This document shows, in pieces, positions 21,524 to 25,834 of a DNA stretch of 28,280 bases. The notes beneath the pieces were generated by a model. It saw only the letters and a program-made list of their open reading frames with translations. It was not told the DNA's origin and did no database searches. The DNA comes from a virus. Position 1 is the stretch's first letter, and each line of letters begins with the position of its first letter. Location of the stretch: the UHGV virus genome UHGV-0263858; one strand, given 5' to 3'. The translations under genes and the position numbers were made by a program.

Positions 21524-21547
21524 AATACATTTCTCTATCAAATACAG

Positions 21548-21602
21548 GGTCCGACATGAAAACGCTTAAAATGCCCTTTTTCGGGTGTTTTCATGTCGGA
21601 CC
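21548..21602. repeat. 16-bp perfect inverted repeat (GGTCCGACATGAAAAC ... GTTTTCATGTCGGACC) with 23-nt spacer, just upstream of Nu1
   Basis: Read directly; followed by TTTTACT on the plus strand. It lies where a cos/terminase-binding region would be expected, but cosN itself is not identified. Confidence 0.4.
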
Positions 21603-21884
21603 TTTTACTGATGTGATATCAGAAAAAACAAATAGTTATGCGCGAGAAGTACCGACATGCTTTTTCCTGAAAAATTTTCATAAATAGCGCGTTTTTGCGC
21701 GTGCTATGACCCCCGGTGTTTCAGATTTCAGAAAGGACCCGCACAAGTGAGAGCATTTATCATTAACATTTACAGATAAGATGACGCACGTCATTGAAAC
21801 ACCATTCAGTCCTATACCGGCAGCATCCGTTGTTGCACTCCGTAACTCTGCTACTAAGGTTAAAAGCATGGCCATCTTTTGCCA

Positions 21885-24320: not shown

Positions 24321-24742
24321 AGGTACTGCTCCAGCGGCAACTGCAGCGCCTGAGCAATTTTCTTGAGCTGCGCTTCTTCATCCGGACCAATGCCGTCCTG
24401 GTCAGCAATATCGAGACACAGGCACAGCACATCAACCGCTTCGGCGGTTCCTGCCACATCAGCCAGTTCACGTAAAGCCTGAGCATTCGCACTACGAGGT
24501 GACGCTTCATAACGGGCGCGGATATTTGCACTCATTTGTGCAATCTCACCGGAGAACGGCGCAAAGGCAGGAAGTGCTGCAATGGTTTTTTCCAGTACAG
24601 CGATTTCTTTCGCATCACAGGTGTCGTCGGCGAATGCTATGGAATACGCGCCCCAGACGGTCGCCTCCACTGCGTCGCGGTTCTCCATCTTCTTAACTTC
24701 GGTAATGGCCTTGCGGGTTTTCTTTTTGAAAATACCAAACAT
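24317..24742 (-). CDS. TerB-like (tellurite-resistance TerB family) protein
   Basis: Start at ATG 24742 (MFGIFKK, SD AAGGAAAA). 141 aa; the architecture and C-terminal DGIGPDEEAQLKKIAQALQL resemble TerB (DGNFDDDEKSAVREIARSLGF). Confidence 0.5.
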   Translation of the reverse strand: MFGIFKKKTRKAITEVKKMENRDAVEATVWGAYSIAFADDTCDAKEIAVLEKTIAALPAFAPFSGEIAQMSANIRARYEASPRSANAQALRELADVAGTAEAVDVLCLCLDIADQDGIGPDEEAQLKKIAQALQLPLEQYL

Positions 24743-24880
24743 CGTGACTTTTCCTTTTAGTGGGTGAGCCTCGCCCCGGGATGAGCAGCCCACAGAGAAA
24801 GTCACACTGACCATCCCGTAAGCTCACCCCTGAAAGGCTCTGTGGTTTTTTTGATGTGCGCCGGGCGTGGCGCGGAAATA

Positions 24881-24903
24881 AAAAAGGCCCGCCGTAGCGA
24901 GCC
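24881..24903 (-). terminator. intrinsic terminator (first of a tandem pair downstream of the tRNA cluster)
   Basis: Minus-strand stem GGCTCGC / GCGGGCC with one G-U pair and loop TACG, followed by TTTTTT. Confidence 0.45.
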
Positions 24904-24925
24904 GCATAAATACTGAATTCTGAAT

Positions 24926-24950
24926 AAAAAAAAACCGCCTGGCGTGGCGG
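24926..24950 (-). terminator. intrinsic terminator (second of the tandem pair)
   Basis: Minus-strand hairpin CCGCC-ACGCCA-GGCGG followed by T9. Confidence 0.6.
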
Positions 24951-25110
24951 TCTATGGCATAAAATGGCATGAAGAGAACGCGATGATTTTATTATGACCA
25001 GAGACGTCGGATATCTTCCGATGCATATACTTCTGAATGGACACTATCGTTTTCCGCTCATGGATTTTTTTAATCTATCTTCGCATCGACGAGTACTCCT
25101 GGGTATTATT

Positions 25111-25191
25111 TACAATACCGGAATGGTGCATCATCGGCCCCGCAAGGAAACATAAAAACCTCTGACGATAATGCACCATTCCAATACTGTA
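25111..25191. repeat. long inverted repeat (perfect 12-bp core GGAATGGTGCAT / ATGCACCATTCC, imperfect extension to about 20 bp)
   Basis: Core arms at 25120-25131 and 25171-25182, read directly; flanked by TACTGTAA direct repeats (25191-25220). Confidence 0.5.
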
Positions 25192-25308
25192 AAAATGGCA
25201 CCGGTACTGTAATCACATCTTCATATTACAGAACAGGACGGGTTAAATCGTTAGGGTAAACGTCCCACCAATAAAGTGCGGTGCCTAAAAACAGTTTAAC
25301 ACTTTCGC

Positions 25309-25383
<75 letters not shown>

Positions 25384-25499
25384 ATCCTGGAACTCGGCTA
25401 CCTGATTTTCATTCTGCACTGAATATCGAGAGAAGCTCTCTTTATTCGAGCCGGTAAGCGAACTTATCGTCTCGGGCTACGCCATCGCGTGGCCGAAAT

Positions 25500-25584
<85 letters not shown>

Positions 25585-25592
25585 GGACTTGA

Positions 25593-25668
<76 letters not shown>

Positions 25669-25834
25669 GTTGGCCCTTCGGGGGAGCGATATCATCCATG
25701 AAGAGGAGTTCCCCTCAGAACCGCTGCGAATAATAATGAGGGCAGTTATTTTTTCAATAAAAAATAATGTTATTATGTGTAAATATACGCATAGATTTTT
25801 ATTATTTGCAAAATAAAGCAATGCACAAGTACAT
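25669..25834 (-). promoter_or_regulatory. AT-rich upstream region of the tRNA cluster (probable promoter with UP-element-like sequence)
   Basis: A markedly AT-rich 160-bp stretch lies directly 5' of tRNA-Thr, with a GC-rich discriminator-like CGCTCCCCC next to the tRNA start. The -10 and -35 hexamers are not confidently placed. Confidence 0.35.

Follow-up and report, generated by a model that had tools for sequence, protein, structure and literature searches.

A conserved long hairpin in the 3' trailer of a tRNA unit of Escherichia lambdoid prophages

A large palindrome in the late part of a lambdoid prophage very probably represents an element that acts as an RNA fold of the minus strand and whose structure is under selection, as judged from the comparison of homologous sequences. 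The DNA analysed, hereafter called the window, is the complete 28,280-nucleotide stretch of virus genome UHGV-0263858. The long hairpin formed by the palindrome appears, from its conservation and predicted folding, to lie at the centre of a structured RNA of about 360 nt, the trailer of a tRNA transcript, and to be the best conserved of its domains. This trailer RNA of Escherichia lambdoid prophages is apparently undescribed, in that no account of it came up when the literature was searched by context and by sequence string. With moderate confidence, we favour for the hairpin the role of a cis-acting double-stranded RNA module for processing or stability in the 3' trailer of the prophage tRNA unit.

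Geometry, strand and folding of the hairpin

An earlier note on this DNA, made from its letters, had described a perfect 12-bp inverted repeat with a spacer of about 40 nt that could be extended to about 20 bp with mismatches. The perfect core is confirmed, with GGAATGGTGCAT and ATGCACCATTCC at 25121-25132 and 25170-25181, and its spacer measures 37 nt. The core does extend with mismatches, but the length of about 20 bp was too short: each arm has 28 nt (25109-25136 and 25166-25193), 24 of the 28 positions are Watson-Crick complementary, and the gap between the arms is 29 nt. These two arms constitute the longest local inverted repeat of the 28-kb window. The placement of the palindrome between the tRNA cluster and the terminators was also correct, with tRNA-Gly (25309-25383) on one side and two intrinsic terminators of the minus strand on the other. 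Read along the minus strand, the central long hairpin (25109..25193) consists of a 5' arm at 25193-25166, an apical segment at 25165-25137, and a 3' arm at 25136-25109.

Folding of the minus-strand transcript had been proposed as a check, and for a 93-nt stretch it gave -44.1 kcal/mol (z = -7.9 against shuffles), compared with -28.1 kcal/mol (z = -5.2) for the plus-strand fold of the hairpin stretch, which includes A-C mismatches. All four mismatches of the DNA palindrome become G-U pairs in minus-strand RNA, so that on this strand the RNA helix would be unbroken, with 28-30 pairs, four of them G-U in the window copy. The strand of the hairpin is also the strand of the tRNAs. In most copies of the family the apical loop reads GGAGAUUUUGUAUUUCCUGGCAGGG. 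A pairing partner for the apical-loop motif UGGCAGGG and a CCA-like tail 3' of the helix were both sought by eye in the window, and no convincing or conserved candidate was found for either.

The suggestion that the palindrome might be an RNA processing or terminator structure of the tRNA transcript survives in part. G-U wobble, maintained pairing and compensatory changes all place the element at the RNA level, in the minus-strand tRNA transcript; the terminator part of the proposal fails. Directly 3' of the hairpin the sequence is AAUAAUACC, which has no U-tract, and for this reason the hairpin is not an intrinsic terminator; the true terminators, whose scan hits are at 24953-24932 and 24903-24886, come 160-230 nt later. 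A stable transcript hairpin does precede terminators, as would be expected of an attenuator of the tRNA transcript or of a put-like RNA that overrides the terminators downstream, but either function is extremely unlikely. Fed by the promoter of the module itself, a constitutive antiterminator would lead to expression of the lysis genes in lysogens, so that a put-like element is implausible, and the two-stem architecture of HK022 put is presumably not shown by this hairpin.

Direct repeats adjacent to the palindrome had been reported as well. Two copies of TACTGTAA are indeed present on the plus strand, at 25185-25192 and 25205-25212, where the transcript reads UUACAGUA, and the window contains three matches in total against 0.29 expected, the third being at 26863. 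However, the copies do not flank the palindrome: one is inside the tRNA-proximal arm, and the second lies 12 nt beyond that arm on the same side. On the transcript, UUACAGUA forms the base of the long hairpin and that of the last hairpin of the preceding domain 1 (see below). The TACTGTAA repeat is missing from the commonest variants of the family and is not kept in most relatives, and we read the repeats as parts of two stems and not as a separate signal. A LexA (SOS) box, suggested by the motif TACTGTA, was considered and rejected, since the required CTGT-N8-ACAG spacing is absent; the TACTGTAA copies give a direct CTGT...CTGT arrangement 20 nt apart, and the neighbouring hairpin gives CTGT-N17-ACAG.

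Conservation of the hairpin and domains of the trailer

Selection on the fold was assessed in an alignment of 82 distinct homologues (alignment A2), from which the RNAalifold consensus recovers the hairpin. Standard pairs occupy 98.9% of the 2783 stem cells, compared with 33-56% when the partners are slid by one to three columns, and none of 500 shuffles reached the observed pairing or the observed covariation score. G-U and A-C combinations in the stem are found in 609 versus 11 cells and at 21 versus 3 pair positions; as unselected transitions would be expected to produce both equally, the ratio of 609 to 11 represents a strong strand bias. One-sided variation is observed at 16 stem pairs and proceeds every time through G-U. 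Full double changes affect three of the 34 stem pairs (e.g. A-U in 47 sequences versus G-C in 22), and their number alone is not beyond that of the shuffles (85/500). The support consists mostly of wobble-preserving transitions among closely related sequences. Most family copies carry one conserved purine-G mismatch in the helix.

Because segments of both the 5' arm and the loop had been fixed in the first scan pattern (IMG/VR, 117 loci), a second set was checked that came from a scan with the apical loop as sole anchor (111 loci). This loop-anchored set contributed 12 further hairpin variants, 11 of which keep the helix with new compensatory changes, including A-U to G-C and U-A to C-G; in the remaining variant the 5' arm was lost by rearrangement. 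Mean pairwise identity reaches 0.88 in the 3' arm, 0.87 in the part of the apical loop outside the search pattern, and 0.84 in the terminator, and is lower in the other parts of the trailer, namely 0.72 in domain 1 and 0.58 in domain 3, with the lowest value in the linker.

The same data bear on readings of the palindrome at the level of DNA. The earlier note had alternatively proposed a protein-binding site at a recombination junction, and a site bound by a dimeric protein, or a cruciform favouring recombination where mosaic segments meet, could account for the perfect 12-bp core and for the genomes that align at the hairpin alone, so that mosaic boundaries are nearby. Such a DNA element is nonetheless very unlikely. 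The 29-nt spacer is conserved too and is asymmetric, and G:T is tolerated at 21 positions as against three for A:C; recognition of double-stranded DNA gives no reason for this preference, which leaves a protein-binding palindrome unsupported. Another copy of the palindrome had also been proposed as a test, and a 17-mer of the arm was found to match the two arms only (chance expectation 0.15 for the window), with no second copy in the window to serve as recombination partner. The junction at which cargo changes in relatives lies elsewhere, just after terminator 1 (e.g. subAB, CP076704).

Wobble asymmetry shows that one strand folds, and it would do so for RNA and DNA alike, so that a hairpin of minus-strand single-stranded DNA, involved in replication or packaging, would produce the same bias. 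We consider this highly improbable: such a hairpin fits poorly into a transcription unit with tRNAs of the same strand upstream and a terminator downstream, and it would be flanked by other covarying hairpins of the kind typical of RNA. We know of no single-stranded DNA function at the corresponding place in lambdoid phages.

The domains on either side of the long hairpin were delimited on the minus strand. Domain 1 (25197..25285) has, in the minimum-free-energy fold, a closing stem GGCACCG/CGGUGCC around two or three hairpins, one of which, CUGUAAU...AUUACAG, contains one of the TACTGTAA copies in the window. In the family the closing stem is GGCACYG/CRGUGCY and likewise holds two or three hairpins, and in two sequence classes, hardly alignable with each other, the consensus folds show compensatory changes in 6 of 24 and 5 of 29 pairs. 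Domain 3 (24995..25103), a closed multi-branch region defined by the consensus fold and alignment A2, has a consensus of 25 pairs, eight of them with compensatory changes (59 sequences); it is replaced by a shorter sequence in 23 of the 82 relatives, and in the window's own copy it is somewhat degenerate. An A+U-rich and poorly conserved linker follows (24954..24994, mean pairwise identity 0.43), and then intrinsic terminator 1 (24922..24953; GACCGCC...GGCGGU and U9 in the terminator scan), which is the conserved 3' end of the module. Intrinsic terminator 2, identified by the same scan at 24876..24903 (GGCUCGC...GCGGGCC, then U6), is found in part of the family only.

Comparison with Rfam 15 at the gathering thresholds returned the three tRNAs and nothing else. 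In a permissive scan of the hairpin, the sub-threshold matches were to microRNA precursor families only, as for mir-580 with 27 bits against a gathering threshold of 83, and the covariance models of ROOL and GOLLD gave no match at E values up to 10.

That the palindrome is a product of chance, a decayed mobile element (MITE) or coding sequence is almost certainly wrong. A fixed syntenic place conserved in more than 120 loci argues against chance. A remnant of a MITE or an insertion sequence was rejected, as each module has one copy in the same position after tRNA-Gly and dispersed copies were not seen; a single copy in fixed synteny does not behave as a mobile element. In favour of coding, one can cite a plus-strand open reading frame of 53 codons (24994-25155) and, in the loop, a frame of 15 codons with a Shine-Dalgarno-like AGAGG. 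A coding sequence, small protein or type I toxin-antitoxin system was nevertheless discarded, given that neither the strand nor the length of the longest frame across the hairpin is constant among the 82 copies, and the antisense frame annotated in phage vB_EcoS-683R6 is likewise not conserved. In the window alone, the loop can be read as AGAGGUUUUUAUG followed by the 15-codon frame MFPCGADDAPFRYCK (25137-25165, minus strand); the ATG is absent from the loop of relatives, so this frame is probably fortuitous.

Distribution and genomic setting of the tRNA unit

A comparison with the host glyT-thrT spacer had been suggested, together with the possibility that the region is ordinary host intergenic sequence conserved in genomes that lack the phage. 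Identity with K-12 reaches precisely as far as the 3' end of tRNA-Gly, and the sequences beyond this point are unrelated; the hairpin is therefore phage sequence and not host spacer. Nor is the region conserved in the absence of a phage: the whole stretch is found in 41 of 5426 complete E. coli genomes, with partial matches in 351, and the context is that of a prophage at every locus examined. In many of the partial matches the 87 nt of the hairpin alone can be aligned, with 77-81% identity, and the flanks differ. Four such loci, located in different lambdoid prophages, have the order Q-position gene, tRNA-Thr, tRNA-Gly, hairpin and holin.

The hairpin is located 110-129 nt 3' of a phage tRNA-Gly(UCC) in 123 of 124 loci, and the upstream tRNA sets vary (Thr-Gly, Met-Lys-Thr-Gly, Met-Lys-Lys-Gly, Met-Arg-Thr-Gly, and others). 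The arrays of loci such as L011, L031, L106 and L110 are composed of Met(CAU), Lys(UUU), Arg(UCU), Thr(UGU) and Gly(UCC) tRNAs, nearly all of which read A-ending codons, and the final position is always taken by tRNA-Gly(UCC). Among 50,697 phage records, the module is present only in SerU-LTIIb, in two copies, and in vB_EcoS-683R6, and in a scan of one genome per species the sole believable match was in Escherichia ruysiae. The two modules of SerU-LTIIb (L002, KU052038) are in tandem and, together with a partial duplication of the holin, precede the LT-IIb genes.

Three tRNA genes form the array of the window, all on the minus strand and all recognized by ARAGORN. The first, tRNA-Thr(UGU) (25593..25668, also detected with Rfam), has a phage-type 5' part and a 3' part identical to host thrU. 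It is followed by tRNA-Tyr(GUA) (25500..25584), which is 100% identical to host tyrU, and by tRNA-Gly(UCC) (25309..25383), the last of the array, immediately 3' of which the structured trailer starts. The 116-nt spacer 3' of tRNA-Tyr (25384-25499) is 100% identical to the host tyrU-glyT spacer. More broadly, 25384-25640 is 100% identical to thrU-tyrU-glyT of K-12, and the outer ends of tRNA-Thr and tRNA-Gly are phage-type. No other copy of the module has either tRNA-Tyr or the 116-nt spacer, and the order Thr-Tyr-Gly occurs in one of 124 loci; the arrangement in all other copies is Thr-3 nt-Gly, also in the STEC005 prophage, which is otherwise 99.9% identical. A hybrid unique to the window points to a recombinant between prophage and host (gene conversion) or to an assembly chimera formed through shared tRNA sequences.

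About 60 nt upstream of tRNA-Thr, a consensus scan identified the promoter-like site TTGAAA-16-TATTAT (25730..25757, minus strand; 10 of 12 consensus positions), from which the tRNAs and their trailer are probably transcribed. In a distant relative (L005, 4370-4480), tRNA-Thr is likewise preceded by a comparable site and by a conserved leader, which suggests that the unit has its own promoter within the late operon. Promoter-like site and leader together occupy 25669-25757 in the window, and the leader, conserved in L005, reads GGTTCTGAGGGGAACTC...GATATCGCTCCCC.GAAG. For the tRNAs of Stx2 phages, an own promoter downstream of tR' has been reported (PMC7547250). The unit looks like a self-contained insert composed of promoter, tRNAs, trailer of about 360 nt and terminator.

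Within the late region of the lambdoid prophage, the tRNA and trailer unit has the Q/methyltransferase region on one side and the lysis genes on the other. Among complete genomes, that of E. coli STEC005 is the nearest, with 100% identity over 24900-25320. The late operon of its lambdoid prophage has, in this order, the Q antiterminator, a number of small genes, a DNA methyltransferase, the tRNAs and an unannotated 0.5 kb, after which come a TerB-family gene, DUF3927, two holins, an endolysin and then terminase. In most prophages with the module, the Q-position gene just upstream of the tRNAs belongs to the DUF1133 family (L005-L008, L132). This gene is named antitermination protein Q in one phage record and carries a domain-only annotation in RefSeq, and it may represent an uncharacterized family of antiterminators. 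In CP076704, the downstream sequence is replaced by subtilase cytotoxin genes directly after terminator 1; these subtilase-family AB5 toxin genes, at 1058-2968 of locus L003, are accompanied by stx2 further upstream.

Two other structured stretches were observed in the window. The 5' untranslated region of the TerB-family gene (24743-24870, minus strand) contains nested inverted repeats, GGGUGAGC...GCUCACCC around GGGAUG...CAUCCC, and folds with -53.5 kcal/mol (z = -2.4). Its plus strand reads CCACAGAG...CTCTGTGG and then T7, so that an antisense terminator is conceivable. A second strong hairpin at 21543-21607 (21-nt arms, 90% complementary, -32.2 kcal/mol, z = -6.3) lies just upstream of the gene for the small terminase subunit and may be related to cos or to packaging, or be a terminator.

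Possible roles of the hairpin and their meaning

Ordinary maturation of tRNAs does not need a long structured trailer, which is a point against the favoured role. The RNase III of E. coli cuts near-perfect RNA helices of more than two turns, and the hairpin, with 28-30 consecutive pairs, reaches the minimum of about 20 bp of almost unbroken RNA duplex that is expected of a substrate of this enzyme. On the analogy of helix length, a cleavage step by RNase III is quite possible, if short of probable. The cut within the hairpin would free the tRNA precursor from a terminator-protected 3' piece, and under Q-driven lytic read-through the tRNAs would become separated from the lysis mRNA further along the transcript. 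The stable flanking domains could shield the newly made RNA ends.

The RNase III hairpins of phages (those of T7 early and late transcripts, the lambda N leader, and sib) likewise place a long near-perfect helix between units of a phage transcript. The internal loop typical of the T7 sites is missing from the window helix. Unlike these processing hairpins, the window helix forms part of a larger folded RNA that follows tRNA genes, and the sequences of its stem and apical loop are conserved. Since the apical loop and the near-invariant stem exceed the needs of a generic RNase III site, they provide a hint of a specific partner.

Such a partner would be central to a different role, in which the trailer is a stable trans-acting structured RNA, with tRNA-Gly as its 5' processing handle and the hairpin loop binding a protein or another RNA. 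This is the main alternative, a serious one, although we regard it as less likely than not. It is consistent with the presence of three covarying domains, with a loop and stem sequence that is kept (0.87-0.88) while the other domains drift, and with the strict tie to tRNA-Gly(UCC) whatever the upstream tRNAs. The unit also has its own promoter-like site and terminator, from which it would be made in lysogens. On the other hand, domain 3 is dispensable in 23 of the 82 variants, the distribution is narrow and essentially confined to Escherichia, and neither the ROOL and GOLLD models nor other models of Rfam resemble the trailer; furthermore, one would expect RNase III to cut a perfect 28-bp helix, which would then not persist. 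Only tentatively can one envisage that RNAs of this kind, with three domains and about 360 nt, constitute a new family that is transcribed along with phage tRNAs from a constitutive promoter in lysogens of Escherichia and acts in trans. Were it so, the RNA might, for instance, sequester a protein of the host or of a rival phage, or serve in tRNA-related counter-defence, and it would be a genetically tractable enterobacterial counterpart of ROOL, GOLLD and T4 species 1 and 2.

Several RNAs of phages and bacteria invite comparison with the trailer. Species 1 and 2 of T4 (rnaC/rnaD) are stable phage RNAs that are located next to, or co-transcribed with, tRNA genes. ROOL and GOLLD are prophage-encoded RNAs, often found near tRNA islands, whose function is not known (PMC12286853). 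The trailer RNA shares with ROOL and GOLLD its prophage origin, the vicinity of tRNAs and a multi-domain organization, but the resemblance is one of context only: it has about 360 nt compared with 500-800, its architecture differs, and it is found in Escherichia lambdoid prophages only. The trailer of the glyW-cysT-leuZ operon yields 3'ETS-leuZ, a functional RNA that ends at an intrinsic terminator, and a similar origin is conceivable here; however, 3'ETS-leuZ is short, little structured and Hfq-dependent, whereas the trailer of the window is long and highly structured. The 24B_1 RNA of Stx phage phi24B is of microRNA size and comes from a hairpin precursor of about 80 nt. Both this precursor and the window hairpin belong to lambdoid phages and have the size and shape of a microRNA precursor, although 24B_1 comes from another locus, the lom region, and its sequence is one that we take to be unrelated to the hairpin.

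Other non-coding RNAs are known from the interval between Q and the lysis genes of lambdoid phages, among them StxS (the pR'-tR' leader in Stx phages), PasA and PasC, which end at intrinsic terminators and some of which are processed from longer transcripts (PMC7547250; PMC8550237; bioRxiv 10.64898/2026.05.13.724894). StxS sits upstream of tRNAs, and PasA, located near TerB and holin genes in EPEC/EHEC prophages, is transcribed opposite to its neighbours. StxS and the Pas RNAs are without the hairpin of the window, PasA being the one that was compared by sequence: PasA of E2348/69 gave chance matches only against the window (at most 16 nt, E at least 0.87). The nmpC-essD interval of K-12 prophage DLP12, which includes IpeX, showed no similarity to 24700-25400 of the window, or to a stretch of L005 that was meant to span the trailer and was taken by approximate coordinates.

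Structured RNAs that are both large and conserved are seldom encountered in E. coli or its phages. ROOL, GOLLD and T4 species 1 and 2 have been known for years without a known function, and a relative in an E. coli prophage would be amenable to standard genetics. The trailer would gain in interest should it prove to be a stable RNA that has its own partner. At any rate, a blank stretch of 0.5 kb gains an annotation in several hundred genomes of E. coli. With regard to the favoured role as a cis-acting processing or stability module, the trailer adjoins both the site at which relatives have toxin cargo, such as the subtilase cytotoxin genes, and the lysis genes just downstream, so that its processing could affect the supply of tRNAs as well as late gene and toxin expression.
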